Below, in pieces: positions 1,456-63,248 of a stretch of DNA of 64,000 nt. Source of the stretch: Candidatus Buchananbacteria bacterium (GTDB taxonomy: Bacteria > Patescibacteriota > Patescibacteriia > 2-01-FULL-39-33); assembly GCA_041666945.1 (NCBI GenBank), contig JBAYFY010000003.1, forward strand, positions 7,392 through 71,391. The letters run 5' to 3'. Each line of letters starts with the position of its first letter. Positions within the stretch are counted from its first letter, which is position 1. A program made the translations under genes and the position numbers. The notes beneath the pieces are model-generated. The model made no database searches. It was not told the DNA's origin and worked only from the letters and a program-made list of their open reading frames with translations.

Positions 1456-2319
1456 TTACTGTTTCGGCACTTCAAACAATCGGGCATTCCCCGGTTTGAG
1501 CGGATCATAACCGTTAATAACCTCCTGGCCGTCTTTATAACCATCGCTGTCAGTATCCGGATTTAGGGGATCGGTTTGATAAATTTTTATCTCCGCCCAA
1601 TCCGTCAAACCGTCATCATCCGAATCAGCTTTAAGCGGATCCGTGCCTAAGGCCCGTTCTTCACTGTCAGTCAAACCGTCGCCATCGGAATCAGGAGCCG
1701 ACTCGGTTGCGGCCGGGATAACGGAAGTGGTGGTAGCAACAGGGGTTGCCGGCACGGTTGTGGTTGCAACAACTGTAACCGCTGTCTGATTTTGTTCTGT
1801 AACAACAGGAGTAACGACCGGAGCAATATTCTTCTTGGCGGCGGAAAAATACAAATACCCCCAATAAGCGGCGGCGCCGGCGCCGGCTAAAACCGCCAAA
1901 ATAACCAAGACGGAAATTAATCTGCCCCAGGGAAACGACCGACCGCCGAAAAGCTCTTCGTTGGAAGGAATATAGGCGGCAGTTTGGGGATTTGATTCCG
2001 AAAGCGGTTGATAAGCGGCCGATTGCGGTTGACTAACGGGTTGAGCCGGAATAAAGGGAGAGACCGGCGAGCCGAAGGCCTGACGGGCAAAAGCCGCTCC
2101 GCCCTGGCGGGATACCTGATCAGTACTGGAAAAAATATCATCAATCGGCAGATTGGCCGGAGCGGCTGGCGCAGCCGCCGGAACAGATTGGGCCGGCTGC
2201 TGATTTAACGGCTGCGGTTGATTAAAGGGATTGGGACCAAATTGCGGCGCGCGCGGCGACGCTGAACCGGGAACACCTGTCCCCGCTTGATTGGCTTGGT
2301 TGGTTGTGTTATCAAACAT
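1456..2319 (-). CDS. Paralogous single-pass membrane protein with TSP3-like Ca-binding repeats (DSDGDGLTD, DSDDDGLTD, DTDSDGYKDGQEVINGYDPLKPGN). Start moved to the internal Met (MFDNTT...) because the longer ORF overlaps the giant gene by 65 nt.
   Basis: ORF 1456..2394. Pro/Gln-rich N-region, TM helix (LISVLVILAVLAGAGAAAYW), Thr/Val-rich linker, three DxDxDG repeats. C-terminal motif shared with 307..1326. Confidence 0.55.
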   Translation of the reverse strand: MFDNTTNQANQAGTGVPGSASPRAPQFGPNPFNQPQPLNQQPAQSVPAAAPAAPANLPIDDIFSSTDQVSRQGGAAFARQAFGSPVSPFIPAQPVSQPQSAAYQPLSESNPQTAAYIPSNEELFGGRSFPWGRLISVLVILAVLAGAGAAAYWGYLYFSAAKKNIAPVVTPVVTEQNQTAVTVVATTTVPATPVATTTSVIPAATESAPDSDGDGLTDSEERALGTDPLKADSDDDGLTDWAEIKIYQTDPLNPDTDSDGYKDGQEVINGYDPLKPGNARLFEVPKQ

Positions 2320-2329
2320 AAAAAAATTA

Positions 2330-5300
2330 TTATTCAATATTACCCCAGCGGTTCCTGAATTCAAAACAATAATTAGCGGAACCGGCGTTCGCACTGCAGG
2401 TATTGAGACAATTGATCAGCGGTTTAGACGCAAAACTGCTGTAAGAAGATAAAGTGGCGCCAGTATACTCCTTAGAATCTTCTTCGGAAGCAGCTGCTCC
2501 AACAATTAAATTGCCGCTGCCATCCAAAGTCAACCATTTGTCTTCTATCTTATAATTTTGGCCGTCTAAGTAAGCGCGCAAAAATCTGATCTTTATCGGC
2601 TGATGATATTTCAAACTGCTAATATAAGCTCCATTGGCAGAGGCCTGCCCGGAAATCAATCGGCAATCCTTATCATAAAGCAAAAATTGATTGCTACCTA
2701 TGATTTCACCATTGTTAGTGCAGACAAAACCGGAAGAATTGCTCATAGTAAAGGCGTTGGCATTGCTATTATCGCGCGTCACAGGACTATAAATGGTATC
2801 ACCCTTCCGATAATGCGTTCCCGGGCATCCCCACCAACAATTATAATCTTTGTCCGCATCCCAATTAGCCATAAAACAAGCTAAGCCCGAGGGTTTAAGG
2901 AATAACAAAAACAAGGAGTCCGTGCTATTGCTATATTTTGTTTTAGCGCTTATTCGGTATGGCCCCTCTTCGGTAACCGAGCCCAAGAGTTCGTTGTCAA
3001 ACGATAAGGAATTGCCCGAAACACATTCGCCTTGATACGGCAACAAATGCACCTCCCAACTGTTTTGCGTGGCTTGAGGCGGAATATTACTCTTCCAAAT
3101 TATATAATCGTCGGCATCGCCGGTATAGGCCGGCAAATTCCAATCCAAAGAAGCATTGGGATCGGCCAAATTACCGGTCGGCGCATCGGAACAAAAAGTC
3201 AAATCGGAAATTTTGGGATAAGTGTTACTGCCGTCCGCTTCAGGATCGGCCGACTCATCATTAATCTTGTTTGTTTCCCATTGGCTATCCCAAACGCCGT
3301 TGCCGCAATAAGGTCCGTATTTTATTTCTGTTCTGCAGGAAGAGAAATCCGAACAAGAGTTGCCGGCTGCGGCGCAAGACCAAATATCGGGATTCGGGGA
3401 ACAGGCAACGCCTTTAACTTGGGTTTGCCGGCAAGGATCATTATTAACCGACCAAATAAATCCGGTGTGGCTGCTATAAAAATCCCAATTGGCTTGGCCG
3501 ACGGCCGTAGGAACCTCGCTTAAATTGCACCATTCCTGGCAAGTGGTGCAAGTGCCATTGCCCAAAGACACGGGATTTTCTGTGTCTTGGCATTTTTGAC
3601 CCAAAGGTATGGCTTGGCAAATGCCGGTTTTTAAAATATAGCCGGTTCGGCAAACGCAATTAAGCAAAATTGGATCAGTGCTGGTATTAACAAAATTATT
3701 AGCCGTATCGCATTGGCAATTGCCGGCTTCGTTACAAACTTGGCCGATTCTTGGTTCGCAACCTCTACCTGAAACCCACTGATAGCCGACAGCGCACTCA
3801 CCGGCATTTTGTGAAATATCGCCATTGCATTTAGTGGTTACCCCCGGCTGGTTATCATCCGGCTTACCACCAATAATCCACTGGCAAGATCCATCGCAAC
3901 ACTGGCCGGAGTCGCACTGTTCGCCGCCATTGACTACGCCATCGCCGCAATAAGCGAATTTGGCGGTAATTATTGATTGACAATCAGCGGAACAGGATTG
4001 ATAGCTGTCGCCTTTTCTTAAATTGGAGTAAAGTTGATTATTGCTTCCATTATTAGCCAGGCATTCAAAAAGATTCAACGGCGGTTTGGGCAGGGGCGTA
4101 TAACCGGTATTGCCGCAATCGCAAGCTTCGCCCGGCTCTTTAATGCCATTGCCGCAATTTATTACCGGCGTGGCGCTGGGACAATTATAACCGGCTTTGC
4201 ATTGGCAAAATCCGCTACAGCCGGGATCGGTCGGATAGCGGCAACAGCAACCTGCTCCAGCCGTCGCCTCGCAAAACGCCTTACCCGTAGCCGGATCAAA
4301 TTCGCAGGTTTCATCGCCCCTAATCAAACCATCGCCGCAAACCGGAAAAGGCGTTAAGCCGGAACAATTATAACCGCTATCGCAACGACAATTGGTGCAA
4401 CCGATGCCGCTATCGCACTCTTCACTCACATCTTTTATGCCATTGCCGCAATTGGTTATGGCGTAACAACCCCAAAGCCCGCCTTGATTCTGGCAGGATT
4501 GGGAAATCGGACAAGCGTTATCCAGATAACAATTGGAACAATTCTCTCCCGCATCCATTTGGCCATTGCCGCAAGTCGGGGGCAACGCCGCGCACATACT
4601 GGAAACAAAATAAGATTCAAAAGGATTTTGTCTTAATCCGGCGGCATTATTGTAATACATTAATCCCGGCACTAAACGCCACGACGGCTGCCAGGCGTTG
4701 GAGTTACTGCCGAATTCTTGTTTCACCGACAAAGTGACCGAATTACCGGAATTAGCCGCGATATAAGAATAGACCGCGGAATCAGCCGAGGGGCAGGTCA
4801 TGGTTTTGGTATCTTCATTCCAACAAGTTACCGAGGAAGCGGGACTGGCGCAACCGACGAATTTGTTAATCGGATCAACCGGCAAATTGCCGCCGCCCAA
4901 CACTGCGGCCAAGGTCTGTTGCCAAGACGGCCAGGCGCTGTATGATTTGTTGGCGATATAAGTGCCTGATTTTAAATCAGGATAATAATTGCCGCAAACG
5001 CCGCTGCCGGAACAATTCGCCGTGGTCTTGCAGATTTTAGCCAAATCGTTGCTGCAACGGGTTTGGTCATAATAATTTTTCAGCCGAACATTAATCTCCT
5101 GCACGTCGGCCAGACGTTTGGTATCGCGGATCAGTTTGGCTTTCTGCGACAGACAATAACTCTGGCCGCGTTTTAAACAATCAATATCAGTCAAACAATA
5201 ATCTTGCCCCGACGGGTTATTATCGCAACCTTTCAAATTCTCGCCTGAATCATTATAATACAACCCGCCAGAATGTTCTCCCGGATTCAAGTTATCACCG

Positions 5301-8300
5301 ACATTAAATTCCCAATTGTTCACCAATTGATTAAAAATATTAATCGTGGACTCATTGGCATCCAAATTATATGACATTAAATAAACACTGCTATAGATTT
5401 GCGTCGCATCATTGGTCAAATCTGCCGCCGCCACATAAACCGTTCGTCCGTCAGATACGGCCTGATAGCCGTCAACCAATAAAGATTTGGGATTGTTATT
5501 TTTACCGCCGAAGCGATTGGCATACCAACGAGCCGGCGAATAATGACTGTTGTTGTCATACACCCTAATGCCGACGGCATCCAATAAATCAGCGGACTCT
5601 TGCTTGACTAAGCGAATATTATACAGACGGAAATTGGAATCGACTGCGGCTCCGGCCGGGGTATCGTTAGTCCAACGAACCAACGCGCTGTGAGAGCCGC
5701 GATCCAATTCATAGGCAGCGCCGGCAGCGGTGCCGAAACGGGTTGTTTGCTGGTCATCCGGAGCGCTGGCTTCAATGCTTTCAGTGGAAGTCGGATTATT
5801 ATCGACTTTCAAATCAACTTTTTGCACTAAGCCGGGCAAGGCCTTAAAACCGTCGGAAGTTTGTAAAAAAACATAATACTTGCCTTTTGATTTAACGTCA
5901 AAATTGAATTTCAAACCGCTGTAATTCGCGTTCATTTGCACCGTACTGCCATCGGCCCAAATCTGGGGCTGGCAATTAGTGTCAGCGCCGCAGACGCGGT
6001 CAACATCGCTAAAATCGGCATCTTTAGCGGACAAATAAATTTGAGCTTCAGCGGCGGCGGAAGCAGTGGTACTGCGGGTAAATAAGAACTCTTTGACTTT
6101 GGCATCGCAATCTTTTTCTTGCAAAGTGAACCGCTGCCAAGAATTGCTAATTTTATAATAATAAAATTTGCCATCGGAAATAATCTCGGCTGGCATGCCT
6201 GTGCCGGCGTAAGAATTGTCATAATAAGCGATAACGGGTTTGAAGCCGGAGATTAATCCTGATTTAGCGGAATCATCCTTGCTGAAAATAAAGTTTATAG
6301 CGGTAACATCCGCCCGATAATGATCGCCGCGGGCGCTCCAAACATGTAAAACATTACCGACATTGTAAGCGGTCGCTAATTTAAAGTCAGCTGGCAAGCC
6401 ACGCGTTTCTTCTTTCTTCACTTCCGACCACCGCGGCAAATCATTGGCATTATTGCAAGAATTCGGCTGTTGCCAATAGGCGTAATTGCCGTCAGTATCC
6501 ATTATTTCCAAATAAGTTTTTTCGCTGCCGCCAATCGTTAAAGTATAGGTATAAGCGGCAAGCGGATGGAAATTGGCCGGCAAATTGGTTTTAGGCCCGA
6601 CATACTTGCTGCCCGTCACCCATTGGCCGTTTTTCAAAGTCAAATATTTTCCGGCGGCGTCCCAGAACTGCACCGCCTCGGCGGGACAATTGCTGTTGTC
6701 ATCATTAAAATAATAACCCAAAACCGGTTTGAAATTAGCGGGCAAACCGGCTGCTTGCCAGGGCGCTTTATCAACTTTGTGCCAGCTTTCTCCGCCAACA
6801 ATGCTTTCCCTGGCATAAACCTCTCCTTTACTGTTCCATAGATAAAGTTTGCCGTCTCCGTTATTGTAATAACCGAATTTAGGCACGAAAGTGTTGGGCA
6901 AATTAACGCAGGATTCATCTCCGCCGCCTATTACCACAGCCGTACTCGGCTTAATGACATTGGTGACGCTATCATAAGTAAAATCGCCGATTGACGGTAA
7001 ATCATCATCTTGATAGAGGCGACAACTGCCCTCCACATATTGCCCGTTGGCGAAACAATCGTTTTGCGATTGGCAGGCCTGGCCGGTGTTATCTCCCATC
7101 ACGCAAACATTAGCAGCGCCGCTGTCTCGGCAATACCAAGTCCAGAAATTAGTATTAATGCAACTGCTGCTGTCGCCGTCTTTGCAGTTGGCATTAGTAT
7201 CCTCAAAAGGAAAATATCGCGCCGCCGGCCAGGGATTATCGCACTCAACATTCATAATAGACATCGTGCCCCGGCCTTCGCCGACATTAACGCCGTTATT
7301 TGCCGCATTATTGTCAGCAGCGCTAATGGACAAAATACTCTTACCGGTTTTTTTGCCTGGCGTCATCCAGATATCAAAACTGTTATTATTGGTGTAATCA
7401 ACAGTGGAAGAAACCATGTCGGTATTTAAATTGGACAAAACCCAACTAAAGGAAGCGCGCAAAGGATAGCCGTGGCCATCCCGAGCCCAGGAACGATAAA
7501 GATGCTGATTGCCTGATTTATAACTGACGCCCTCTGCCACTATCGGAGCGCCTGTAGCATCCAAACTATAGCCGCTTTGGCTGGGATTATTTGTCCAAAT
7601 TGCCGACATGTCGTCGTCATAAGGATCAGCCGAGTAACGGCCGCAATCATCGGGCTTGCCTTGAGCCGGATCGGAATTGCAGAAAAAAGAATCCACCGTT
7701 TTTTGATCGCCTTTGGGCCAAACGTTTGTCGTAACTTTTTTTATCTGGCAAGCGGTGGCAAAAGTCAAAACCGTGGCCGCGGTTGTAGCCCTGACTTTGG
7801 ACTTAATATAACTGATCGCGGCGCGATATTCGGTATTGGCTTCCCAATTATTATTTTTATTGATGTAATTCAATTCATAACTGTCATTATCAACGGAATA
7901 ACCGATGATTTCTAAATTATTAGTTACCCCCTCCCTGGTGGTGAAACTGGCGCTATCTTGGAAATTACCCCAGCGCATTTGTTGCAAGGCGCTGGAATCA
8001 AACGTCTTTTCTGACAATTTGCACCAATAATCGGCGGCCATAACCGAACGTAAGCCGAACATGCGTTTGACGAATGACACTAATTGCTTAATGGTCCGTT
8101 GCCAAAAACCCAAATTATTGGCGGCGATGCAATCACCGCTCGGCGCCGTTGTGCCATTATAACCTTTATATAAAGTAATAGTGAATTCGCTCACATCTTT
8201 AGCCGGATGGAATTGCCAAATGCCATTGGGACACGGATTCAAGCCGACGCCAAACGGTTCGCAATATTGAGCGTTTTGATCCAATTGGAACGTCCAAGAA

Positions 8301-11300
8301 TAACTGTCCAAAATACCGCTGTCTAATTTATTATTCCGGCAAGTGCCGCTCTTCTCGGCCGAGTTAAGCAAGCAAGTGGCGCCGCAACGTTTGTCAGCTC
8401 CGTTTTTTCCTGAACCGTCGTCACACTCTTCTCCGGTTTCTATTCGATTGTTGCCGCAAACCGGCGCGCTCGGCGCGGAACCGGTATGCAGACAATCGGC
8501 AGTGCAGCCGACGGAATTTTTAAAGCAAACTTTAGAAACCGCAACGGAGCGCGCGCTGACCTGAATGGTAGTGGTGCTGATATTGTTATTATCGCAATTT
8601 AAGGCCGCATACTTGCCGCTGCCGGACGCATAACCGGCTTCATACAAACACTTAGAACTGCAACCGTCGGCGGAATTGGCATTGCCGTCATCGCACTGCT
8701 CGCCGTATTCTATCCGGGCGTTGCCGCAACGGGAATTCCAACGCGCGTTAGCGCCTTCCCATAAACAAACCGCGGAACAACCGTCATTATTTTTGATATT
8801 GCCGTCATCGCAATCTTCTCCCGGTTCAACCAGCTTATTGCCGCAAGAAGCCGAATTGGAATTGCCTTTGGCGCGGCAGGACTCGTCGCAATAATCTCCG
8901 GCCGAAAAAAGCTTGCCAACCTCATCGGCCGATAAGGCGCGATTATAAACTTTTAGTTCATCAATCAAACCGTCCCATTGCCCCTGATCCAGATAATCGG
9001 CGCGATGCCCGATTCTAAGAGGCGTGGCTAAATCGTAAGCGACAGAGGAAATAGCGGTTTTTACGCTCCCCGCTTCTTGGCCGTTGATATACAACTTAAT
9101 GCTGTTACCCGGGATAAAAACGCCCGTAACCAATGTCCATTTGCCGCCGTAATTGCTGAAAAAGTCGGGATAAGTAACGACGGCGCGCTGGCCGCTGTTG
9201 TCAAAAATCTGGAAGAAAATTTCATCCGGCGCCGGGCACCCCCAACGTAAGGCGCAGCCCCAATCATCGCCTAAAGTCCAACCTCTAAGTTGTGAAGCGT
9301 CATCGCTGTATTTATAAGTTGAGGCGATAATACCCAAACCGCGATCATCTTTGGCATCGGCCAGACCTAAAACACCATTATCCAATCTCACCCAAGCCGA
9401 GATGGTTAAAGGATTACTATTCTTCAGTTGGCTGACCAAACCAGCCGAATTAGTTGTTTCCAAAGCGGTTTGGCCGGTGGAACCGACAAATTTCGGCGCT
9501 TGGCCGAAAGGACTGCCGACAAAAGAAATATTGGTGTTGCCGGCTGAACGTAAAGCATAATTATGGCCGGAGCTGTCAATTAAATTATTTCCGGCGGCAA
9601 ATTTATAATAAGCCACTAAAGCGGCGTCTTGGGCCGCACATTCGGCTAAAGAAGTATCGCATAGGTCTTCGCCTTCTTTTATTAAACAGGTGCTGCTATC
9701 GCAAAAACCATCATAAGGATCGCCGGGACGGAAAGGATAAACCGTGGGGTCGCATTGCTCGCTGCCTTTGCTTTGGCTGGTGGCGTAGTTTAAGCCGCCC
9801 AATTGGGAATTAGCAAAAGATATCGGCCCAGACGATCCGCCCTTAACCACAACCCGGTAAGGCGTAGCCGTAGCTAAAAGACCGACTGGTTTTACCGCCA
9901 CTTCATTAGTGAATTGCTGTTCAGCCAAAGTCGGATAAACCAAATTAAGAGGTTGATTGGCGCCGCTTATAACGCAAGCCGCATCGCCGACGGCGCATTG
10001 ATACAAAAGTATATTGTCATTTTCCTTCAAACTGGCGCTGATGGCATCGGTCGTGAATTTGAATCTGACTTCAGTATTTAAGCAGGCATCATTAGTCGGA
10101 TTTATTACTTTGAAACCGCCATAACCTATTTGCAACTCGCCTCGGCCCCATTTATCAGCGGAACAAGTCGCTCCGCCTTGGGCTGAACCGACGGCTCGGG
10201 CTTTAATATTGGTAAAACCCTCACTATTGCCGAACACTTTAACGACAGGGGCGGAGCCAGTATAAACAACAGGGCAAACACCGGCGCTGGAAACAGAACA
10301 AATTTGCGCTACGCCATTGCCGGTAGCGGCATTGCAAGCGGTATTTTCATCACTTAAATTAAGGAGAGAACTCCACTGCCAAATATACAAATAAGGATTC
10401 AAATGCTGGCATTTATGTTGCGGATCGGCAATGTAAATCTGGCTTTCATCAGTATATTTCATGAGTTTCTTTTGCGGTAAAACGCCGACAAAATCAATCG
10501 GGCAATCAACTGCTCCGGTCTTAAAATACCAAAAATAATCATTTTGCCCGTCGCTAAAATAATTATCGCCCAAAGACGGGGTCTGCAAGACGCCTTCTCT
10601 CACTTCATCTATGCCTTGTTTACTCTTGGCTCCCCTCACTCCGTTATCACCCCCCAAGATTATGACGCGATAAAAGGTATTGGGATCAAGCCGAACCGGA
10701 CCGCTATTATTAAACGGGCTCAAACGAATGCCTTCGGCCGCCAGAGAATCATATTGCTCCGCCGGCGCGCTGACAATTTCCTGCCAAGACAAATCGCTAT
10801 GGCTGTAATTAAAAATATCCAGTTGCCATTTGCTTAAATCTATATCCGCGCAAGCGTTTAAAGAAGTGGATAAAACATCGTTAGCGGCGTTTGTCCCGGC
10901 GCATTTTTGCACTTTAATTCGGGTTCTATCCAAAGTTGCGTTTGTCATGTTACGGCTGAACAACGCCAAAAGCGAGGCGTTAATGCAGGCCTCGGTGGTT
11001 GTACCCCTAAATGGCGACGGGCTTTGCAACTTTCCGGCCAAACCATTGTCGCCGACGACACAAACGGGATTTTCCACCACAATCGGATCGGTAAAATTAT
11101 TATGGCCCGGGCAGGTCCCGCTGTTGCCGGTAGTCAACTCTATGCTGGCGATGCGGAAATAACCCTGATCGGAGGAAGTAAACAAAGCGTCCTGGTAAGT
11201 CCGCCAATCGCTTTCTTTTTGCGCCGTAGAAGTGGCTTTAGACCTAATAAAGTCGCTAATGATTGAATAATTATTCGTGCCTTTGGCCCAGATGCCGTTT

Positions 11301-14300
11301 GTCTGCTCTTCCTCCTGCCAACTCCAATTAAAGGTATCGGCGTTAAGCATAATGCAAACATTATCTTCGCTCAAAACATCGGATTTATGCGGCCGTTCCT
11401 GGCCATAATAACGGTTGACGAATTTCTGCGGCGAACAATGCACGCAACCGACGCGGCAATATTTATCATTGTCTCCTTGGCTGCGAGTATGAAAATTCCA
11501 ACAGAAAGCGGCATGGGGGAACTTTGTCAAATCATCGCAACCTCCGGATTGCAACGCTTGCTGGTCCACATAAAGCGGAAACCCTTCATAACTGACAACT
11601 CCGCTGGTGAGCACTACTTTGTAATCAGTATCGGCCTCTAAGGTCTGCGGCATGAATTCAAAATAATCAAATAAATCGGGACTGCCAAGATCGCGGCTGG
11701 CATAAGAACTGAAAGAACCGTTGGGTATGACCGGCTGCCATTCTCCGCTAACGTCTTTTTTGTAGATTTTCAAATTTTTCCAACCTGGCATGGTTAAATC
11801 AGTTTCAACTTCGTTCAATGACTTTACGTCCATCGGCCTATTAAATCTGGCGGAAATAGCGGCGTTCAAGCAGGCCTCGGAGTTAGTTACTCCGGCGGTA
11901 GCCATTGTCCATCTATCTGAGGGAGTCGGCGAGGGAAGGTTGTCCCCGTCTTTGCAAGCTGAACCGCGCGAACAATCCACGACAACGTAAAACTTTTTCG
12001 GTCCCAACTCATGAGTGGCCAAAAAAGTCCAAGAATACAGCGACAACGAGGCCTGTTGTCCTGTCGGATAACAAACTTGATTGGGCAACGGTTCGCAACC
12101 GCCCCAGTGGCCGTTGGCCTGACAGACGCGTTGCTGTTTGCAATTACCCAAATCAGGGCAACTCTTTAAATCAGTTTGATTGGGAGTGCACAACTGGGCT
12201 GCAGGTACGCAAGTGCAGGCCTCATGCGCCAACGAGATTTCATTAATTACCAAATGATCGGTGGAGGACGACTGACCGATTTTATTGGTTTGACCCGGGG
12301 AGGAATTGGGGAAATAGACAAAATCTTTAACTGAACCCGTATACAAGCCGTCAACCTTTCTTCCCCAAGAGCCGGGCGAAAAAGCAACGGTGGAAGAATT
12401 ATAAATTATAATATCGGCAATCTCATCACCCAGGCCTTTGATAAAAGCTATAGTGCCTTGATCTTTTCTAAGTTGGAAATTATTACCGGGATTAAGGGTG
12501 GATGTGCTGATGATGAAATAATTGCCGGCTTCCAGGATAACGCCTCGCGGTATAAAATAAGTGGCCGCGCTGCTATCGCTCAACAAATCAGCGATGCTTT
12601 CTTGCCGGCCGGAATAAACGATACGCCAATCATCCAAGCTAACGGGGGAAACGGTGGGATTATATATTTCCACCCACTCTTCATTAGAACCAGCAGTATC
12701 GCAACCCAAATCATTGCCGCAATTTTTAGGATCGCAAGTGCCATCCTGCCATAAATCGGACAAACAACGACGGCCGGCCTGCGGCGAAAGCGAGGCCAAG
12801 AACGACCAAGAATACAAACCTAATGAAGCTGGATTAGTCCCCAAATAGGGCACGCAAGCAGAATCATTTTTAACACAAACTCCCCAAGTATTGTCCGCCC
12901 GGCAGGTTTTCTGGCCGAGACAGCCGCCTAAATCGCAACCCATGACGGCGTTTTGCGCCGGATCGGAATTGTAAACGCATTCCTGGCCGGCAGCTTTTTG
13001 GCAAGTGCAGTTCTTGGCCATATCGCAATCAACGCGATAAAACCATTTACCGATATCCTCCGACTTATTGCTGCAGCCCTGGCAAGTCAAATTGCTCCGG
13101 CAATCGGCGCTGGAAGCAAAACACACGGCCGGATCACCGCCGATATTGTCACCGCAGGAATCGCCTTCGGAACCATTGCCGATATTGAATAAAACGGAAT
13201 TGCTATAACCGCCATTGTAAACTCTGACCACTGAATCGCCACGCCTGCCCTCCGGCACAACATCTTTAACTGTCGTGTCGGTCCAAGAGACGGCGGCGGT
13301 GGAAGTTACGCCGACTAAGCGCCAATAATTCACACTGGAGTCGCGAACATACCAAATTACTTTGCCCGTACCGTCGGCGGCAAAGCCGCGACCTGTCAAA
13401 TCAACGGCTGTCGGATAAACGCCGCTGGTCGGATCAATTGAGCATAAACCGGGCAATTTGATATTATTAGCTAAAAAATCCCAAGTATTGCTCACTAAAG
13501 GCGATTGCGGCTTAGTTTTATTGATGACCTCAATTTTGTAATTGGCCGGCAAATCATTAACTGAATCCAAACCAGTCGGCACTTCAATGACAATCTTGTT
13601 ATCCTGCCAGACCGAGGCGCAGTCGGCTAATTTGGCTAAGGTGATTGCTCCGCTGTTTTTGGCGACAAACCTGACCTCGCCGGCCACTCGGCCAAAACCG
13701 CGACCATAAACAGTCAGATAATTACCGGCGGCGCCATAACCGATATCATCGTCCAAAGTATTAATATCACGCAAACTGCTGTCATTATTAGGATCAAAAG
13801 ACGGGTCAACCCAGGTAATCACCGGATTTCCGACGCAATAACAATTCGCGCCGCAATAATTGATGCAATTGGAATCGTCGCACACCGGGCTGTCGGGACG
13901 GGTGCAGGGAAAATCCGAACAGTTCTGGGCGCAACCGCCGCCGCAATCAATACCTTGTTCATCCACGTCCTTAACGCCGTTAAAACAATGACTGGGAGAA
14001 AATTTAGCTTGGATTTTATTGGAGGGATAGGATTTATTATTGGCAAAAGATCGCAAAGTGGTGGAAGACAAACTGTCGTATTCGGCCAAAGAGGTATCCC
14101 AGGAAAGAGTGGCGGCCGCGGCATTATATTGCTGATTATTGATGGTGATGATTTGTGAAACGACATTGGCCGAACCGATTTGTTTTTCCGTATTATCTTT
14201 AAGATCAAATAATGAGAGTTCGCTGACGGCATCATCCGCATTGTAAGAATAAACCTTGACTTGCAAAGTCGGGCTCTTGGGCACTTGCACGCTGCCGTAA

Positions 14301-14920
14301 AAACCCACAGTGCACTCGCGACTGCGCCGCTCTTGCGGCCAATTGGGAAAAGCCGAATCGGAAAACTCGCAAATAGTCACTTTTTTCTTTGTGCTGTCAG
14401 GCAAGCAATCGGCGCCGATGCAATTCGGTATGCAACTGGGATCAGTCAGAACGCAACCGCCCCAAAACTCGTCATCACCGCAAATCTGTTGGCCACCGCA
14501 ACCGCCGCTGCTGCAAGATTTGATATCGCCGGGAGTACACGGCTGCCCTTGAGGATTGAACCAGGACATTAAAAATGAAGCGATGGCAAAAGCGGAAAAA
14601 ATGATCACTAAGCCGATAATCGCATTATAGATCATTTTTTTGGCTTTATTGACTTTATCCGGATCGCCTCCGGCCGTCATCCATAAAAAGCCGGCGTAAA
14701 TAATTAGCAGTAACGCCACCACGCCCAGTAAACCGAAAACAACCTGCAGAATGCGACCGATAATCATACCCAAACTGGCAGTACCGAAAATTCCTGACAA
14801 ACTTTCTAATGTGGGCGCGCTTGGAGTTTGCGCCCAGGCAAAATTACCGACGGCAAAAAATGCCGCCAATATCAGCAGGGAAAAAACGATTTTCAATTTT
14901 GTCTTGCGTTTTACAGGCAT
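2330..14920 (-). CDS. Giant (4196 aa) secreted, extremely cysteine-rich multidomain surface protein. Signal peptide plus VirB2/TrbC-like two-helix pilin-like N-module; IPT/TIG-like domains; lamin-tail domain; LamG/concanavalin-A-like jelly-roll; Myxococcus-type cysteine-rich repeats (CGNxxxExGExCDDGN).
   Basis: Single uninterrupted 12.6-kb ORF. N-terminus MPVKRKTKLKIVFSLLILAAFFAVGNFAWA (signal) followed by GRILQVVFGLLGVVALLLIIYAGFLWMTAGGDPDKVNKAKKMIYNAIIGLVIIFSAFAIASF (two TM helices). EWVEIYNPTVSPVSLDDWRI is LTD-like. LTISAWVRLDN...LYINGQEAGS...IDELKVYNRALSADEV is LamG-like. CGNKLVEPGEDCDDGN, CGNARIEYGEQCDDGN and CGNNRIETGEECDDGS are MXAN Cys-rich repeats. Confidence 0.8.
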   Translation of the reverse strand: MPVKRKTKLKIVFSLLILAAFFAVGNFAWAQTPSAPTLESLSGIFGTASLGMIIGRILQVVFGLLGVVALLLIIYAGFLWMTAGGDPDKVNKAKKMIYNAIIGLVIIFSAFAIASFLMSWFNPQGQPCTPGDIKSCSSGGCGGQQICGDDEFWGGCVLTDPSCIPNCIGADCLPDSTKKKVTICEFSDSAFPNWPQERRSRECTVGFYGSVQVPKSPTLQVKVYSYNADDAVSELSLFDLKDNTEKQIGSANVVSQIITINNQQYNAAAATLSWDTSLAEYDSLSSTTLRSFANNKSYPSNKIQAKFSPSHCFNGVKDVDEQGIDCGGGCAQNCSDFPCTRPDSPVCDDSNCINYCGANCYCVGNPVITWVDPSFDPNNDSSLRDINTLDDDIGYGAAGNYLTVYGRGFGRVAGEVRFVAKNSGAITLAKLADCASVWQDNKIVIEVPTGLDSVNDLPANYKIEVINKTKPQSPLVSNTWDFLANNIKLPGLCSIDPTSGVYPTAVDLTGRGFAADGTGKVIWYVRDSSVNYWRLVGVTSTAAVSWTDTTVKDVVPEGRRGDSVVRVYNGGYSNSVLFNIGNGSEGDSCGDNIGGDPAVCFASSADCRSNLTCQGCSNKSEDIGKWFYRVDCDMAKNCTCQKAAGQECVYNSDPAQNAVMGCDLGGCLGQKTCRADNTWGVCVKNDSACVPYLGTNPASLGLYSWSFLASLSPQAGRRCLSDLWQDGTCDPKNCGNDLGCDTAGSNEEWVEIYNPTVSPVSLDDWRIVYSGRQESIADLLSDSSAATYFIPRGVILEAGNYFIISTSTLNPGNNFQLRKDQGTIAFIKGLGDEIADIIIYNSSTVAFSPGSWGRKVDGLYTGSVKDFVYFPNSSPGQTNKIGQSSSTDHLVINEISLAHEACTCVPAAQLCTPNQTDLKSCPDLGNCKQQRVCQANGHWGGCEPLPNQVCYPTGQQASLSLYSWTFLATHELGPKKFYVVVDCSRGSACKDGDNLPSPTPSDRWTMATAGVTNSEACLNAAISARFNRPMDVKSLNEVETDLTMPGWKNLKIYKKDVSGEWQPVIPNGSFSSYASRDLGSPDLFDYFEFMPQTLEADTDYKVVLTSGVVSYEGFPLYVDQQALQSGGCDDLTKFPHAAFCWNFHTRSQGDNDKYCRVGCVHCSPQKFVNRYYGQERPHKSDVLSEDNVCIMLNADTFNWSWQEEEQTNGIWAKGTNNYSIISDFIRSKATSTAQKESDWRTYQDALFTSSDQGYFRIASIELTTGNSGTCPGHNNFTDPIVVENPVCVVGDNGLAGKLQSPSPFRGTTTEACINASLLALFSRNMTNATLDRTRIKVQKCAGTNAANDVLSTSLNACADIDLSKWQLDIFNYSHSDLSWQEIVSAPAEQYDSLAAEGIRLSPFNNSGPVRLDPNTFYRVIILGGDNGVRGAKSKQGIDEVREGVLQTPSLGDNYFSDGQNDYFWYFKTGAVDCPIDFVGVLPQKKLMKYTDESQIYIADPQHKCQHLNPYLYIWQWSSLLNLSDENTACNAATGNGVAQICSVSSAGVCPVVYTGSAPVVKVFGNSEGFTNIKARAVGSAQGGATCSADKWGRGELQIGYGGFKVINPTNDACLNTEVRFKFTTDAISASLKENDNILLYQCAVGDAACVISGANQPLNLVYPTLAEQQFTNEVAVKPVGLLATATPYRVVVKGGSSGPISFANSQLGGLNYATSQSKGSEQCDPTVYPFRPGDPYDGFCDSSTCLIKEGEDLCDTSLAECAAQDAALVAYYKFAAGNNLIDSSGHNYALRSAGNTNISFVGSPFGQAPKFVGSTGQTALETTNSAGLVSQLKNSNPLTISAWVRLDNGVLGLADAKDDRGLGIIASTYKYSDDASQLRGWTLGDDWGCALRWGCPAPDEIFFQIFDNSGQRAVVTYPDFFSNYGGKWTLVTGVFIPGNSIKLYINGQEAGSVKTAISSVAYDLATPLRIGHRADYLDQGQWDGLIDELKVYNRALSADEVGKLFSAGDYCDESCRAKGNSNSASCGNKLVEPGEDCDDGNIKNNDGCSAVCLWEGANARWNSRCGNARIEYGEQCDDGNANSADGCSSKCLYEAGYASGSGKYAALNCDNNNISTTTIQVSARSVAVSKVCFKNSVGCTADCLHTGSAPSAPVCGNNRIETGEECDDGSGKNGADKRCGATCLLNSAEKSGTCRNNKLDSGILDSYSWTFQLDQNAQYCEPFGVGLNPCPNGIWQFHPAKDVSEFTITLYKGYNGTTAPSGDCIAANNLGFWQRTIKQLVSFVKRMFGLRSVMAADYWCKLSEKTFDSSALQQMRWGNFQDSASFTTREGVTNNLEIIGYSVDNDSYELNYINKNNNWEANTEYRAAISYIKSKVRATTAATVLTFATACQIKKVTTNVWPKGDQKTVDSFFCNSDPAQGKPDDCGRYSADPYDDDMSAIWTNNPSQSGYSLDATGAPIVAEGVSYKSGNQHLYRSWARDGHGYPLRASFSWVLSNLNTDMVSSTVDYTNNNSFDIWMTPGKKTGKSILSISAADNNAANNGVNVGEGRGTMSIMNVECDNPWPAARYFPFEDTNANCKDGDSSSCINTNFWTWYCRDSGAANVCVMGDNTGQACQSQNDCFANGQYVEGSCRLYQDDDLPSIGDFTYDSVTNVIKPSTAVVIGGGDESCVNLPNTFVPKFGYYNNGDGKLYLWNSKGEVYARESIVGGESWHKVDKAPWQAAGLPANFKPVLGYYFNDDNSNCPAEAVQFWDAAGKYLTLKNGQWVTGSKYVGPKTNLPANFHPLAAYTYTLTIGGSEKTYLEIMDTDGNYAYWQQPNSCNNANDLPRWSEVKKEETRGLPADFKLATAYNVGNVLHVWSARGDHYRADVTAINFIFSKDDSAKSGLISGFKPVIAYYDNSYAGTGMPAEIISDGKFYYYKISNSWQRFTLQEKDCDAKVKEFLFTRSTTASAAAEAQIYLSAKDADFSDVDRVCGADTNCQPQIWADGSTVQMNANYSGLKFNFDVKSKGKYYVFLQTSDGFKALPGLVQKVDLKVDNNPTSTESIEASAPDDQQTTRFGTAAGAAYELDRGSHSALVRWTNDTPAGAAVDSNFRLYNIRLVKQESADLLDAVGIRVYDNNSHYSPARWYANRFGGKNNNPKSLLVDGYQAVSDGRTVYVAAADLTNDATQIYSSVYLMSYNLDANESTINIFNQLVNNWEFNVGDNLNPGEHSGGLYYNDSGENLKGCDNNPSGQDYCLTDIDCLKRGQSYCLSQKAKLIRDTKRLADVQEINVRLKNYYDQTRCSNDLAKICKTTANCSGSGVCGNYYPDLKSGTYIANKSYSAWPSWQQTLAAVLGGGNLPVDPINKFVGCASPASSVTCWNEDTKTMTCPSADSAVYSYIAANSGNSVTLSVKQEFGSNSNAWQPSWRLVPGLMYYNNAAGLRQNPFESYFVSSMCAALPPTCGNGQMDAGENCSNCYLDNACPISQSCQNQGGLWGCYAITNCGNGIKDVSEECDSGIGCTNCRCDSGYNCSGLTPFPVCGDGLIRGDETCEFDPATGKAFCEATAGAGCCCRYPTDPGCSGFCQCKAGYNCPSATPVINCGNGIKEPGEACDCGNTGYTPLPKPPLNLFECLANNGSNNQLYSNLRKGDSYQSCSADCQSIITAKFAYCGDGVVNGGEQCDSGQCCDGSCQWIIGGKPDDNQPGVTTKCNGDISQNAGECAVGYQWVSGRGCEPRIGQVCNEAGNCQCDTANNFVNTSTDPILLNCVCRTGYILKTGICQAIPLGQKCQDTENPVSLGNGTCTTCQEWCNLSEVPTAVGQANWDFYSSHTGFIWSVNNDPCRQTQVKGVACSPNPDIWSCAAAGNSCSDFSSCRTEIKYGPYCGNGVWDSQWETNKINDESADPEADGSNTYPKISDLTFCSDAPTGNLADPNASLDWNLPAYTGDADDYIIWKSNIPPQATQNSWEVHLLPYQGECVSGNSLSFDNELLGSVTEEGPYRISAKTKYSNSTDSLFLLFLKPSGLACFMANWDADKDYNCWWGCPGTHYRKGDTIYSPVTRDNSNANAFTMSNSSGFVCTNNGEIIGSNQFLLYDKDCRLISGQASANGAYISSLKYHQPIKIRFLRAYLDGQNYKIEDKWLTLDGSGNLIVGAAASEEDSKEYTGATLSSYSSFASKPLINCLNTCSANAGSANYCFEFRNRWGNIE

Positions 14921-14940: not shown

Positions 14941-17900
14941 TTAATCGCAACCGTTGCCGTCGCAACATTTTCCCAAACAGCACTTAGTTGCTCCGTTTGC
15001 ATCGGCTATGGGAAAATCCTTGGTAACCACCCAGCTGCCGTATTTAAATTTTGTCGTATCCGCAGAAGTGGCGATCGGTTCCATGCAGGTCTTGGCGCAA
15101 TTAACTTTAGCGCCCGTAATATCTTTACAATTCATATAACCGAAAGAGGCGGGATTGGTTTTGTTTATCGGAGACGGCATAGTCAAGGCAACATCGGCGA
15201 CGCAACCGGCGGTATTATATTCGTCATCAATCTTATAACGGCATTTATTAAACTCAATATTCGCTTGATAGCTCCAACCTGCGGGCAGCGCTGATGAATC
15301 AGCGGCGGCATTTTGCGGACCGGAACCGGGCAAATAACAATTCTGCGTGACTGATTCCAGGCCCGAACCGGCGCCGGGCGCGTAGGTAACCGCTTGGTCG
15401 TAAGGGTTGTGATCAACTAAGGCCACGCTATAATCAATCAAGCCATCACCTGAACCCTGGCCGTAAACATCGCCTTCGTCTAAATTATTTACTGCCGCCC
15501 AATAACCGACAGGGTTGGCGTTTTGCGTTACCGTGCCTAACATTAAAAAACGGGTATAGAAATTACGGTCGGCCAAACCTTCACCATAACCGAAACCGGG
15601 CTTAAGGGTAACGGGATTCATTAGTCGATCAAAAGCGAAAACAACCGGATCGCCAAAGACCTCGCTGCTATCCTGCCCCCAACTCTCATCGCCTCGGGGC
15701 TGGATGGAAAACAATAACGGCGATTTATCATCAATTACCGTGGAAACAAAAAATGACCAGGAAAAATCATCGCCTTTCGTCGGGTTGGCATCGTAAGTCG
15801 GCTTTTCAATCCCATTATCAATTACAAACGTATCATTGACCAAATAAGGATTGGTTTTGCCGGAGTAGCCATAAAGCGCGCCGGAAACGGCTTGCCCCGT
15901 ACGACCCTCCGCCACACCCACGGTTTTGCCTTGGTTATCAACCGCATTAGTGTAATTGCCATTTAAAGAATTACCGGACATATCCGTAATGCCGCTGGTA
16001 TCAGTCAAAGCGGCTTGAGGATAATAAATATCGTCTTTCTTGCAACGATCATAAGCGCCACCCTCGCATTGCCCGCCCCAGCGCTTGCACCAAACATTAC
16101 TGCCGTCATCAACGCTTTTGCCTTGGCAGGATTGCAAAACGGCTGCGGCAACCACGATTTGGAATGGTTCGGATTTGGCAGCGGCTCCGGCCGAAGGGTC
16201 AATCCAGCAGTATCTTTCTTTACCGCAAGCATTCTGGCCGCAAGGATAAATGCCGGTCATTTGCACGGTCTTATACTGATTAGAAACATCATACTTAATT
16301 CTATCGGCGGGAATGTCAATCCAAGTGTTGCCGACTTTAGTTTGAACCTTGACCGTATCGGTTAAATTCAACGGATTAATTGCTTTATTGAAAGTAACAA
16401 AGAAAATGGAATTATTATAAACGTCAGGTGCCGCGCCTTGCTGGGTTTTGAGTTGATTTTTATTTTTACCGGATAAATCGCCAACTATGGTCATGATGCT
16501 ATCAGCCGCCGATTTATCAATGCTTAAGTTATTGGCTCCGGCTCCTTTTGGTTTGATAATCAAATATGCCGGCGAGCCCGCGGGGCTGACTGAGACATCA
16601 ACTAAATTCTTCGCTCCCGAACCGGCGATGGCATTCCGCAGATTTTCCAAAGTGCCGCCAATATTACCGGCCTTAACCACTGCGGTATAATTAACTGTTG
16701 CCGGTTGACCGTCAATTCCGACTTGGGTCTTGGCGACGTTGACGCCGTTAGCGTAGGCATCAGAAGCAAAAATGAAATTAATTTTATTAGCGCCGTTATT
16801 AATAACATAGGTATCGCCGGCAACGGCCGTTTCGGCCGTAAATCTCCATTGACTGCCTTGGGTAAAAGTTCCGCCTTCCGCGGCTATAGTCAAACCGTTG
16901 CCTAAATCAAAACTGACGCCGCTGACAATAGTAAAGGTCTTGCCGGTAAGCGGAGCTGGGGAATCATTAGTAAAAGCAGCGCTTCTGCCATCGCTGGAAA
17001 CGGTAAAAGTTGCTGTCCCCGCGCCCAAATCAAAACCGCTCGGCGTACTGACATGGGCCTTAAAGCCGGCGGGAACATTGCCGCTGGCGTTAGTTAGCTC
17101 TTTCTTCAGGGCTCGGCCCAAAAAATATTCGCCTTGCAGTTTAACCGGCTTTTCTGCTTTCAAATTAACTAAGGATAGTAAAGTAGTGGTAGATCCGCCG
17201 GTAGTGGATTGCGAGGAAACGGAATATAAATCCGGCTCCGTATCAGGGTAAGGATAAACTTCATATTTAACCACCTGCGGCGGATTCAAATCCAATTTGC
17301 CGTTTGTCTTGAATGACCAGGTATAATAATCCATCTTCCATAGTTTGAAAATCGACTCGCCGGTGGAAGAAGCAATAATGCCGTTTTTCAACGTAACCAT
17401 AAATTCTCTATTGGCGCCGTCTTCTTTGCCTAAGAAAGAATTGGTTAAAAACACAAAGGTCTTATCATTGCCCGGAGTTTGAGTGACGGTGGTACTGGCG
17501 CCGTTAAAAGTTTGCGCGGTGAAATCGCCGTTTTCCAAACACTTGCGCGGGGTAGCTTCGGTATCGGCCTCGCAGATTTCAATGTTAGCGCTGGCGCTGT
17601 TGGAACAATAACCAGCGGCATTGGGAACGCAAATGCTGTCAGGTTTGATATTTGATTTGAAAGTTACCACGATCCTGGTGTTAATCGGCACATTGGTCTG
17701 ATTGGGCGCGGGATAAACGCTTTCAATCGGCCCGTTGCCGATACCGCCACGACCCCAATCGTCCGGTCCGCCGGGTATGCCGCCGCCGGGTATGCCGCCG
17801 CCTCCGCCTCGGCCGAATATTCCCATTAACCAAGTAGTAATGGCGAAAGCCGCAAAAATTATAACTAAACCGATAATGGCGTTATAAATTATTTTCTTGG

Positions 17901-20901: not shown

Positions 20902-21498
20902 TTATATTTTATATTCTGGCGTGCTGAAAACGGTGAAGCGGCTGAATGGCCAGCCGCGAATCCAGGTCCGGCCGACAATCAAATCCTTTTTGACTGATCC
21001 GAAAATCCGGGAATCCAACGATTGCCCGCGATTATCACCCAACAAAAAGTACTCATCTTCGGCTAAAGTCACTTCGCCGTAGCCGCGTACCGGCAAGACC
21101 GTTTCCGTGCCGGCCAATAAATAAGTTTCTCCCAACTTCTCGCCGTTGATATACACGGCATTGTCTTGAATCTTTACCTTATCGCCGGGCAAACCGACGA
21201 CACGCTTGATAAAATACTGTTTAGTGTCTTTAGGATACTTGAAAACAACGATGTCGCCCCGCTGGGGCTCATTAAAACGATAACTGATTTCGTCAATGAT
21301 CAAATATTCATGATCGTAAAAGTTCGGTTCCATGGACGCTCCCTTGACATAAAACGGCTGAATCAAAAAATATCTGACGGGTAAGATAATAACTAAAGAA
21401 ATAATGGCTACTCTGACCATTTCCCAAATAAATTCGGAGATTGCCTGCCATCTTGAACGGCCAGGACTAAAACCATCGGAAATCTGATAATTATCCAT
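20902..21498 (-). CDS. lepB: Signal peptidase I
   Basis: GASMEPNF (catalytic Ser box), RGDIVVFKYP, YFIKRVVGLPGDKV (Lys box), GDNRGQSLDSR (box E). Confidence 0.8.
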   Translation of the reverse strand: MDNYQISDGFSPGRSRWQAISEFIWEMVRVAIISLVIILPVRYFLIQPFYVKGASMEPNFYDHEYLIIDEISYRFNEPQRGDIVVFKYPKDTKQYFIKRVVGLPGDKVKIQDNAVYINGEKLGETYLLAGTETVLPVRGYGEVTLAEDEYFLLGDNRGQSLDSRIFGSVKKDLIVGRTWIRGWPFSRFTVFSTPEYKI

Positions 21499-46563: not shown

Positions 46564-46596
46564 ATAATTAAAATTATTAAAACAAAAAAACACCAA

Positions 46597-54592: not shown

Positions 54593-54726
54593 AAAGGGGT
54601 ATCGTGAAAATTGAAACTCTCTTAATCACCCTTTCATAAAGGGGAGAAATAACCTGGATTCCTGGTCAAGTTTACCCCGTCTTTATGACTGGGGCCAGGA
54701 ATGACAAATAAAAGAATATTAAACAA

Positions 54727-63143: not shown

Positions 63144-63248
63144 GATTTTATCTCCTTGGTTGGTCTGGTTGATTTTTCGATGTAAGGAACATTGGGAAAA
63201 TACAATATATAACATTCTCACCGACAAGTCAAGATTAAAAAACCGGCC

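Follow-up and report, generated by a model that had tools for sequence, protein, structure and literature searches.

A giant cysteine-rich protein of Patescibacteria with a VirB2-like pilin head, encoded beside a partner gene that carries the same head

What might a bacterium build from a protein of 4196 amino acids (aa) whose N-terminus resembles a small pilin? The question is raised by a 64,000-nucleotide (nt) stretch of DNA from a Candidatus Buchananbacteria bacterium (assembly GCA_041666945.1, contig JBAYFY010000003.1, positions 7,392 to 71,391), which we refer to as the window and which comes from an organism placed by the NCBI taxonomy in the Parcubacteria group of the Patescibacteria. 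On the minus strand of the window, positions 2330..14920 form a single unbroken open reading frame (ORF), the product of which we call the giant. An earlier note written from the letters of the window (the original prediction) had picked out this frame and interpreted it as a mosaic of extracellular domains; the frame is indeed present and uninterrupted, and all of the peptide strings quoted for it were found. NCBI holds a 100%-identical protein under the name 'LamG-like jellyroll fold domain-containing protein [Candidatus Buchananbacteria bacterium]', and colinear full-length orthologues were identified at 79% (P0002) and at ~53-55% identity (P0003). When the giant's gene was compared with that of P0002, the proportion of differences was 0.11 at nonsynonymous (pN) and 0.67 at synonymous sites (pS), the latter being close to saturation, and dN/dS was ~0.07 overall and between 0.03 and 0.10 in every one of 15 segments. 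The giant is one real gene, under strong purifying selection over its full length. Internal tandem repeats were ruled out, as no internal repeat was found in the giant by self-BLAST (E<0.01) and none inside the gene by Tandem Repeats Finder (TRF). The idea that the gene is the target of a diversity-generating retroelement was also rejected, since the window contains no template/variable repeat pair of at least 40 nt and no reverse transcriptase.

The resemblance to a pilin lies in the first 123 residues of the giant, and it is shared by the product of the gene immediately upstream:

14831..14920, minus strand: signal-peptide-like N-terminus of the giant (aa 1-30, ending ...FAWA↓Q), with a basic n-region and a hydrophobic stretch (Kyte-Doolittle windows above 1.6 at aa 6-31).
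14570..14779, minus strand: VirB2/TrbC-like 'T4SS pilin' head of the giant with two hydrophobic helices, matched by PF18895 and NF045849 (T4SS, type IV secretion system).
14941..18258, minus strand: upstream partner of 1105 aa with a pilin-like head (PF18895, E=8.6e-13) and a Big_5 domain, 20 nt from the giant.

The two helices of the giant's head (aa 44-86 and aa 95-123) are joined by a lysine-rich loop, GGDPDKVNKAKK. The T4SS_pilin model PF18895 matches aa 48-117 with E=1e-12 and 48.2 bits (cut-off 26.6) and NF045849, which describes the Mbov_0395 pilin-like conjugal transfer protein, scores 42.2 bits (cut-off 40); the TrbC model PF04956 reaches 22.4 bits, under its cut-off of 27.9. The entire layout of signal peptide, two helices and short basic loop aligns with that of stand-alone pilins of 124-139 aa, to which the head is 54-66% identical. 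An A-x-A↓Q motif is kept both in the heads of the family and in the small stand-alone pilins, and the giant is probably cleaved at AWA↓Q. By its sequence, the head belongs to the VirB2-like pilin family. By size and gene context the giant itself falls outside that family: the head makes up 3% of its 4196 aa, as against the roughly 70-140 aa of a protein that consists of a pilin unit alone, and T4SS genes (VirB4, VirB6 etc.) are found neither among the ORFs of the 64-kb window nor among the Pfam-annotated neighbours of related giants at four other loci (L001, L003, L004 and L005).

We searched for further copies of the head with HMMER in the full set of 1.84 billion cluster representatives; 41,610 proteins passed a threshold of E<=1e-3, and 7,167 passed E<=1e-10. 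These place the head in four settings: stand-alone pilins of 124-139 aa, proteins with 2-17 heads in tandem, proteins of ~1000-1100 aa, and giants. At the sequence level, the head profile matched no solved T4SS pilin. Within the window's giant, hydrophobic segments are confined to aa 6-31, 44-86 and 95-123 with none past aa 123, so that the remaining ~4070 residues must all lie on one side of the membrane; by the positive-inside rule, the loop of the head would be cytoplasmic and the long remainder outside the cell, whether or not the signal peptide is cleaved.

The head also occurs in arrangements other than that of the window. Single polypeptides with many tandem pilin-like heads (P0152-P0162 and others) include P0152, with 17 in 1775 aa, and P0153, with 11 in 1147 aa; these could be fused 'poly-pilins' or products of gene-calling read-through in pilin arrays, and we know of no description of such proteins. 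In addition, arrays of 4-9 consecutive small pilin genes (~90-180 aa), with heads close to that of the giant, were seen at L062 (9667-12400), L066 (9938-12100), L079 (553-2300) and L081 (9485-13800). The L081 array has no T4SS genes, including the ATPase, within 10 kb, and its neighbours encode a C39-like peptidase/FG-GAP protein, a glycosyltransferase and signal peptidase II.

How are the heads of the giant and its upstream partner related? Within the window, their 68-aa head cores are 78% identical and the rest of the two proteins is unrelated; the two genes also share a 195-nt DNA repeat, 79% identical. In five genomes the head cores of a genome's own pair were 62-82% identical, compared with 37-51% for distant orthologous heads. 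Since pS between the paired heads lies mostly at 0.59-0.69, near saturation (0.30 in L004), the likeness of the heads seems to be held at the protein level and not only through recent gene conversion. The same pattern was seen across the 66 loci, including the window and metagenome loci, in which a head protein of 520-1116 aa is followed by a giant of at least 1700 aa. The mean head identity was 0.537 between a giant and its own partner, compared with 0.408 between a giant and the partner of another genome, 0.423 between giants and 0.413 between partners, and the own partner was the best-matching partner in 33 of the 66 loci (permutation p<=1e-4). The heads of giants and partners thus fall into no separate orthologous groups and are instead kept alike within lineages. 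The simplest reading is that the two heads must fit each other, or a common partner.

The pair resides in a conserved cassette, whose members in the window include, besides the two headed proteins:

20902..21498, minus strand: gene for a type I signal peptidase (S26), four genes upstream of the pilin-headed pair.
1456..2319, minus strand: downstream single-pass membrane protein with bacterial TSP3 repeats of the calcium-binding type (PF18884, E=2.8e-21), likely to start at the ATG at 2319, 11 nt past the stop of the giant.
307..1326, minus strand: second downstream single-pass membrane protein with a TSP3 repeat (PF18884, E=3.4e-5, 24 bits against a cut-off of 25), whose position is conserved.

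The gene order S26 signal peptidase, HisRS, S21, YqeY, head protein, giant, TSP3 proteins, YbeY, (DAGK), FtsA, FtsZ is identical in L001, L003, L004 and L005, where the giants share 79%, 36%, 29% and 27% identity, respectively, with that of the window. The gap between partner and giant is 3-47 nt, and a TSP3 protein is kept downstream of the giant in these four loci and in others. A scan of one genome per GTDB species gave at least 513 confirmed loci, of which 79 were kept, and the record titles among the loci listed include Buchanan-, Falkow-, Uhr-, Magasanik- and Komeilibacteria. In a tblastn survey of 83 loci with six housekeeping and TSP3 markers, 70 loci proved to have S21, 65 HisRS, 62 S26 and 53 YqeY. 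The cassette is part of the vertically inherited core and does not represent an accessory island. To call the architecture unusual for bacteria, as had been done, obscures that it is standard for this clade, in which the family is inherited vertically and counts at least 513 loci in genomes that represent GTDB species.

Peptidases of the S26 type mature some conjugative pilins (RP4 TraF/TrbC); the presence of an S26 gene near the pair may be mere synteny. Many of the GTDB-representative metagenome-assembled genomes with the cassette bear the title 'uncultured Gammaproteobacteria bacterium' (L007, L009, L011, L012 and others), and L025 and L039 are also among those with odd titles, Candidatus Udaeobacter and Candidatus Kapaibacterium being used once each; organism names that are placeholders or mistakes, as occur in assemblies submitted in bulk, are the probable explanation.

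What, then, does the giant carry outside the cell? Downstream of the head, its parts run as follows, from the N-terminus to the C-terminus:

13835..14542, minus strand: Cys-rich clusters at aa 127-186 and 312-362 with the motif 'HCFNG..D.DE.GIDCGG.C', around an unassigned beta-rich stretch (direct reading).
13187..13828, minus strand: two IPT/TIG Ig-like domains, aa ~365-490 and 494-578 (Pfam TIG).
12416..12694, minus strand: lamin-tail domain (LTD), aa 743-835, a lineage-specific insert (PF00932, E=1.4e-11).
10367..12052, minus strand: conserved module A, aa 957-1518, starting with a Big_5 Ig-like domain at aa ~1010-1105 (BLAST coverage).
8918..9430, minus strand: LamG/concanavalin-A-like lectin domain, aa 1831-2001, a lineage-specific mobile insert (PF13385).
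8351..8845, minus strand: three Myxococcus-type cysteine-rich acidic repeats, aa 2026-2190 (TIGR02232, DUF4215).
6971..8323, minus strand: family core B1, aa 2200-2650, ending 'C.NPWP...YCRD.G...DDLP' (invariant columns in alignment A3).
6119..6886, minus strand: inserted putative beta-propeller, aa ~2680-2931 (AlphaFold 2 model and Foldseek).
5594..6046, minus strand: inserted beta-sandwich resembling carbohydrate-binding modules (CBM) of families 6 and 35, aa ~2960-3106 (AlphaFold 2 model and Foldseek).
4661..5581, minus strand: family core B2, aa 3114-3420, 'DA.GIRV..N..HYSP..WY ... WPSW...LP.DP.N' (BLAST coverage).
3821..4603, minus strand: degenerate cysteine-rich repeats, aa 3440-3700, with CGNGIKDVSEECD, CGDGLIRGDETCE and CGNGIKEPGEACDCG (weak DUF4215/TIGR02232 matches).
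2333..3820, minus strand: fast-evolving C-terminal tip, aa 3701-4196 (BLAST coverage).

Profile searches, which the original prediction had named as the test of its domain assignments, recovered the pilin head, two TIG domains, LTD, LamG and Myxococcus repeats in the order it gave. Some of its coordinates were shifted by ~150-350 nt, with LamG at 9430-8918 and not at 9280-8680 and the repeats at 8845-8420 and not at 8650-8300. The Cys-rich clusters near the N-terminus have no Pfam match, and their description as 'Cys-knot-like' is backed by no profile or structure match; their motif is present in the family consensus. Of the two TIG domains, that at aa 494-578 has E=6e-5, and the weaker match at aa 397-469 (E=0.018) is backed by TIG matches at the equivalent position in the homologues P0007 and P0008. 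The Big_5 domain of module A was assigned by transfer from matches in P0005 and P0007, the giant's own match being weak (E=0.011). LamG is recognised by Laminin_G_3 (PF13385) with E=5e-20 and 72.5 bits (cut-off 27.6), a match at the level of the fold, and the repeats, whose motifs begin at aa 2026, 2065 and 2155, are recognised by TIGR02232 (myxo_disulf_rpt) with E=6.7e-22 and 77 bits (cut-off 20.8) and by DUF4215 with 30.0 bits (cut-off 27). The degenerate repeats of the C-terminal third give weak DUF4215/TIGR02232 matches (E=0.015-0.04); the consensus of the homologues at this position consists of canonical CGNG..GE.CDDG repeats, and the region carries the DNA-level repeats D4, D5 and D7. 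Altogether, Pfam and NCBIfam models cover ~500 of the 4196 residues (~12%). Profile scans of chunks and sub-regions add no significant match, and the whole protein matched nothing among PDB sequences at E<0.1 by phmmer.

We divided the giant into family-wide blocks and inserts using BLAST coverage by 119 homologues together with the family consensus. The family-wide blocks are the head (aa 1-120), the Cys module with TIG (aa 300-600), module A (~70 of the 119 homologues), the cysteine-rich repeats at aa 2000-2200 (~100 of 119) and core B. The B2 block, which starts sharply at aa 3114 and reaches aa 3672 in BLAST coverage, is common to ~115 of the 119 and is the most widely shared module after the head. 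The giant has the family order of PF18895 head, Cys module with TIG, module A, DUF4215 repeats and core B, PF18895 is present in 113 of the 120 family proteins listed, and the order recurs in other giant proteins of Patescibacteria, as the original prediction had proposed to check. Sequences with B2 were found in Patescibacteria only, as were all of the relatives.

The cores that define the family are orphans. B1 has no Pfam match, and B2 matches nothing in Pfam, in PDB sequences (using a five-sequence profile), in Foldseek-PDB or in BFVD. An AlphaFold 2 model of aa 3105-3680 gives two sub-domains with a predicted local distance difference test score (pLDDT) of 80-93. The stretch 'YP.L...WPSW...LP.DP.N' after a long helix had led us to consider a type IV pilin or pseudopilin-like domain in core B, which was rejected because Foldseek found no match in the PDB (best E=0.095) or BFVD.

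The inserts specific to certain lineages are LTD, LamG, aa 2650-3113 and the last 500 residues. The LTD region is covered by only ~6 of the 119 homologues and the LamG region by 6-9; because LamG lies at a different place in P0008, it can be regarded as a mobile module. Where the giant has aa 2650-3113, most relatives pass directly from '...DDLP' to '...EYLFT...DAIGIRV'. In the AlphaFold 2 model of aa 2190-3113 (m72da73b64452, pLDDT 64), aa ~2680-2931 fold into five blades of four strands each, and a beta-sandwich comes next at aa ~2960-3106; pLDDT is ~55-91 per 10-residue block across the blades, whose motif is 'LPANFKPVLGYY'. With the model of aa 2190-3113, Foldseek retrieved enzymes that combine a propeller with a CBM, namely 8ic1 (an endo-arabinanase, E=4e-7) and 3c7e (GH43 with CBM6, E=1.6e-5), as well as the isolated modules 2w1w (CBM35, TMt 0.66) and 2cdp (CBM6, TMt 0.65), which from the order of the domains would belong to the sandwich. 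On the evidence of the models, it seems that this lineage has inserted a pair consisting of a beta-propeller and a CBM6/35-like module mid-core; the propeller is present in only ~4 homologues. A hemopexin-like reading of the 'LPANFKPVLGYY' blades was dropped, since there was no hemopexin match in Pfam and none among the top 50 Foldseek matches, and 'beta-propeller' alone was retained.

The C-terminal ~500 aa occur only in the giant, P0002 and P0003. This tip is 23-34% identical to that of P0003, as against 55% overall, and is under purifying selection (dN/dS 0.10). It has no Pfam match, and a search with the tip alone returned no homologue, although this search seemingly favours candidates of similar length and missed even the full-length orthologues. 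Taken together, the coverage data show a conserved family scaffold that carries as lectin-type inserts LTD, LamG and the pair of propeller and CBM6/35-like module, as well as a fast-evolving 500-aa tip. The orphan modules and the propeller/CBM-like insert, like the partner gene with the same head and the conserved cassette, are features beyond those of the original prediction.

Cysteine is the most conserved residue of the giant. It contains 192 cysteines, or 4.58% of its residues, compared with 1.18% in the 37 other ORFs of the window (157 cysteines in all), so that the strong enrichment previously noted is confirmed, far above what chance would give, and the phrase 'hundreds of cysteines' is a generous one. 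All 192 are retained in P0002 and 93% in P0003, proteins with overall identities of 79% and 55%. Ten of the 13 non-conserved cysteines fall into five nearby pairs (167/172, 2109/2143, 3572/3580, 4028/4032 and 4175/4185), leaving 3735, 3840 and 3966 unpaired, and the totals (192 and 182) are even. Such conservation, with losses mostly in pairs and even totals, is the pattern expected of structural disulfides. The earlier description of a mosaic extracellular protein rich in structural cysteines is upheld. A plausible folding partner had also been proposed:

36251..37117, minus strand: DsbA-like protein with Thioredoxin_4/DSBA matches, an N-terminal transmembrane anchor and a CSVC active site.

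This oxidoreductase is real, but, contrary to what had been stated, its gene is not adjacent to that of the giant: 21 kb and ~15 genes separate the two, and the direct neighbours of the DsbA-like gene encode subunits of pyruvate:ferredoxin oxidoreductase (PFOR). Within the window, neither a DsbB nor a VKOR partner could be recognised.

What function would be in keeping with these features? We lean, by a modest degree, towards reading the giant as a surface fibre or adhesin that is anchored by its N-terminal hairpin and stabilised by disulfides, assembles together with its partner protein and binds glycans on the envelope of a partner microbe. Export via Sec would insert the hairpin, with probable cleavage at AWA↓Q, so that the loop faces the cytoplasm while the long C-terminal part is exposed. 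Giant and partner heads could then pack like pilin subunits, in the membrane or in a short pilin-like bundle, to give a shared anchor or short fibre, and the membrane-anchored DsbA-like oxidoreductase (CSVC) may form up to 96 disulfides. Ig-like domains, cysteine repeats and orphan modules would constitute a stalk, which for ~4000 residues might, as a rough estimate, be of the order of 100 nm in length. The lectin-type inserts (LTD, LamG and propeller-CBM) and the variable tip would bind envelope glycans of the host or partner microbe, with the two TSP3 membrane proteins as possible accessory components, perhaps calcium-dependent. Cultivated Patescibacteria are epibionts that need adhesins and pili for growth, as well as a T4SS, of which the pilin subunits are essential (PMC10633639; PMC11665869). 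For the adhesion surface suggested in the original prediction, the lectin-type domains are consistent with a polysaccharide and nothing points to a eukaryotic target. A more far-reaching version, possible but doubtful as a whole, is that giant and partner heads form an undescribed heteromeric surface organelle, in which a VirB2 hairpin acts independently of a T4SS as the anchor or base of a fibre on the ~100 nm order, inherited vertically as part of the core of Buchanan-, Falkow-, Uhr-, Magasanik- and Komeilibacteria and owing its host specificity to swappable lectin inserts and the fast-evolving tip.

Several points weigh against the surface fibre or adhesin that we favour. The similarity of heads within a genome could possibly result from episodic gene conversion without interaction, as the pS of 0.30 in L004 illustrates. 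Around 88% of the giant is without a profile match, and core B is without a structural analogue, which makes any assignment of its function a guess. In the propeller-CBM region no Pfam CBM or lectin model matches, the assignment relies on Foldseek E-values of 1e-7 to 1e-4 at ~12% identity, and both AlphaFold 2 models are of moderate quality (pLDDT 62 and 64). Finally, a fixed site by ftsA/ftsZ and strong purifying selection fit a housekeeping envelope structure equally well.

This last point leads to a distinctly unlikely alternative, namely that the pair is a constitutive coat or wall-spanning structure, S-layer- or spacer-like, that serves envelope architecture or division. Such a scaffold would account for a pair that is near-universal, that sits among housekeeping neighbours in a fixed order over many species-level genomes, that is under uniformly strong purifying selection, and whose orphan core modules are common to nearly all family members. 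It would not be expected to carry lineage-specific mobile lectin-type inserts and a diverging distal tip, which are typical of proteins exposed to a variable external ligand; profile scans of the giant found no SLH, other wall-binding or S-layer domain, and the ftsAZ neighbourhood is conserved synteny and no evidence of shared function. A somewhat less improbable, though still unlikely, alternative takes the head at face value, as a true VirB2-type pilin polymerised by a patescibacterial T4SS, with giant and partner as rare or tip subunits that display the adhesive modules on a pilus made mostly of small pilins, an arrangement that would recall the modular type IV pilins of Streptococcus sanguinis. 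The PF18895 and NF045849 matches, the 54-66% identity to small pilins and the presence in related genomes of arrays in which 4-9 small pilin genes share this head all fit such a modular pilin, and subunits that co-polymerise would have to have heads that match within a genome. VirB2-like pilins of Patescibacteria, surveyed as small proteins, are moreover widespread and often found near virB4 (PMC12102498), and they are essential in one cultivated species (PMC10633639). Set against this, the 64-kb window and the four Pfam-annotated cassettes contain no gene for a T4SS ATPase or channel, the L081 array likewise has no T4SS genes within 10 kb, and the head profile matches no solved T4SS pilin sequence. 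Given the tight packing of a VirB2 fibre, a 4000-aa extension would also be sterically hard to accommodate unless the subunit that bears it were very rare.

The Foldseek matches to 8ic1 and 3c7e, which share the order of propeller then CBM, could be taken to mean that the propeller and CBM form a GH43-like or arabinanase-like unit that attacks the host wall, with the rest of the giant as a delivery stalk. A glycan-degrading enzyme or toxin of this kind is highly improbable, as identity is ~10-12% with a whole-chain root-mean-square deviation above 20 Å, no glycoside-hydrolase Pfam model matches even at E<=10, and WD40, RCC1 and YCF48 propellers score similarly, so that the fold class alone is supported; being present in only ~4 family members, the propeller cannot carry the function of the family. 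The view of the original prediction, in which a mosaic of eukaryote-type domains is aimed at a eukaryote-like surface and folded by an adjacent DsbA, now appears just as improbable. The LTD, LamG, TIG and TSP3 matches are real, the names of these domains having been first defined in animal proteins, the window does encode a DsbA-like protein, and a further protein with Ig_3/I-set domains is found at 61713..63227. The label 'eukaryote-like' is nevertheless nominal: the models that match are versions rich in bacterial members (Laminin_G_3, LTD, TIG, TSP3_bac and TIGR02232), the relatives are all patescibacterial, the architecture is standard for the clade, and the DsbA gene is 21 kb off beside PFOR genes. 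In addition, cultivated Patescibacteria attach to bacteria or archaea (PMC12102498).

How does the giant compare with known systems? With VirB2/TrbC-type pilins (PF18895; PMC12102498) and the pilin-like proteins of Mycoplasma integrative and conjugative elements (NF045849) it shares a signal peptide, two helices and a lysine-rich loop, and several paralogous heads per genome are seen in the giant's family as in VirB2-type pilins. VirB2-type pilins are small, often arranged in arrays and often near virB4, whereas the giant has a 4070-aa extracellular extension and a housekeeping neighbourhood without a T4SS gene; unlike in them, the head stays matched to that of a single fixed partner. Among type IV pilins, modular ones are known from Streptococcus sanguinis, in which PilB carries a vWA module and PilC a ConA-like lectin module. 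These resemble the giant in joining a conserved head to adhesive C-terminal modules, including LamG/ConA-like ones and, in family members, VWA. They differ in having a class III signal peptide and a single N-terminal helix in place of a VirB2-type hairpin; the grafted part of the giant is more than ten times larger, and the fibre that it would form is a putative one. In genomes of OD1, 'large (>1500 aa) beta-rich proteins' were interpreted as adhesin-like in 2015 (PMC4508563). Together with these, giant adhesins such as the RTX/BAP-type LapA and SiiE and the giants of Omnitrophota (bioRxiv 10.1101/2023.11.21.568195) have in common with the giant that they are multi-kilodalton extracellular proteins with a largely Ig-like/beta-sandwich build and lectin-type domains; like it, members of this group come from host-dependent ultrasmall bacteria and are thought to mediate cell-cell contact. 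The giant is set apart from them by its hairpin anchor, ~96 putative disulfides, fixed chromosomal position and fixed partner. It does not count among the repeat adhesins of RTX, BAP or LPXTG type: it has no tandem repeats, no hydrophobic C-terminal segment and no such Pfam domains, and there is no type I secretion system or adjacent secretion-system locus. Finally, in terms of content the giant belongs to the Myxococcus-type repeat proteins (TIGR02232/DUF4215), with which it shares CGN...E.GE.CDDGN repeats, and JGI names many family members 'cysteine-rich repeat protein'; these repeats amount to only ~5% of the giant and define neither its anchor nor its core.

The giant itself is a member of a large, database-visible family. 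Among the papers searched, none describes giant PF18895-headed proteins, their partner or their fixed locus, and what seems to be new is the use of a VirB2-type head as the anchor of a giant, the co-evolving head of the partner, the core cassette, the orphan modules and the swappable lectin inserts. A large part of bacterial diversity belongs to the Patescibacteria, most of which live attached to other microbes; to our knowledge, the molecules that make this contact are unknown outside a few cultivated Saccharibacteria. The family, being large, recognisable and fixed in its genome site, is a concrete candidate for the attachment apparatus of lineages in the Parcubacteria group, in which LTD, LamG, the propeller-CBM insert and the C-terminal tip would be the expected carriers of host specificity. 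In these genomes, annotation as 'T4SS pilin' (PF18895) may in many cases be no sign of a secretion system.

Elsewhere in the window, the 504-aa ORF at 61713..63227 (minus strand) encodes a probable surface protein with animal-type Ig domains (Ig_3 E=2.8e-20, I-set 1.4e-14 and Ig_2 1.7e-14). The genes for leucyl-tRNA synthetase (24101..26965, minus strand) and isoleucyl-tRNA synthetase (43060..46596, minus strand) encode enzymes with inserted enzymatic domains, namely a NUDIX domain at aa 386-513 in the former (E=2.4e-14) and a His_Phos_1 histidine-phosphatase domain at aa 521-694 in the latter (E=2.6e-39). Between the genes for threonyl-tRNA synthetase and a histidine kinase, positions 54351..54608 hold three tandem 56-nt units, each with the hairpin TTCCCGC-CTTC-GCGGGAA, which continue into ~4 copies of a 20-nt repeat (GCGGGAATGACAAAGAGGGT); the whole resembles a small element of the REP type or an array with a regulatory role. 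Two tandem 72-nt copies, 92% identical, lie at 31563..31706 in an ORF of 337 aa (30760..31773, minus strand) that has no Pfam match.

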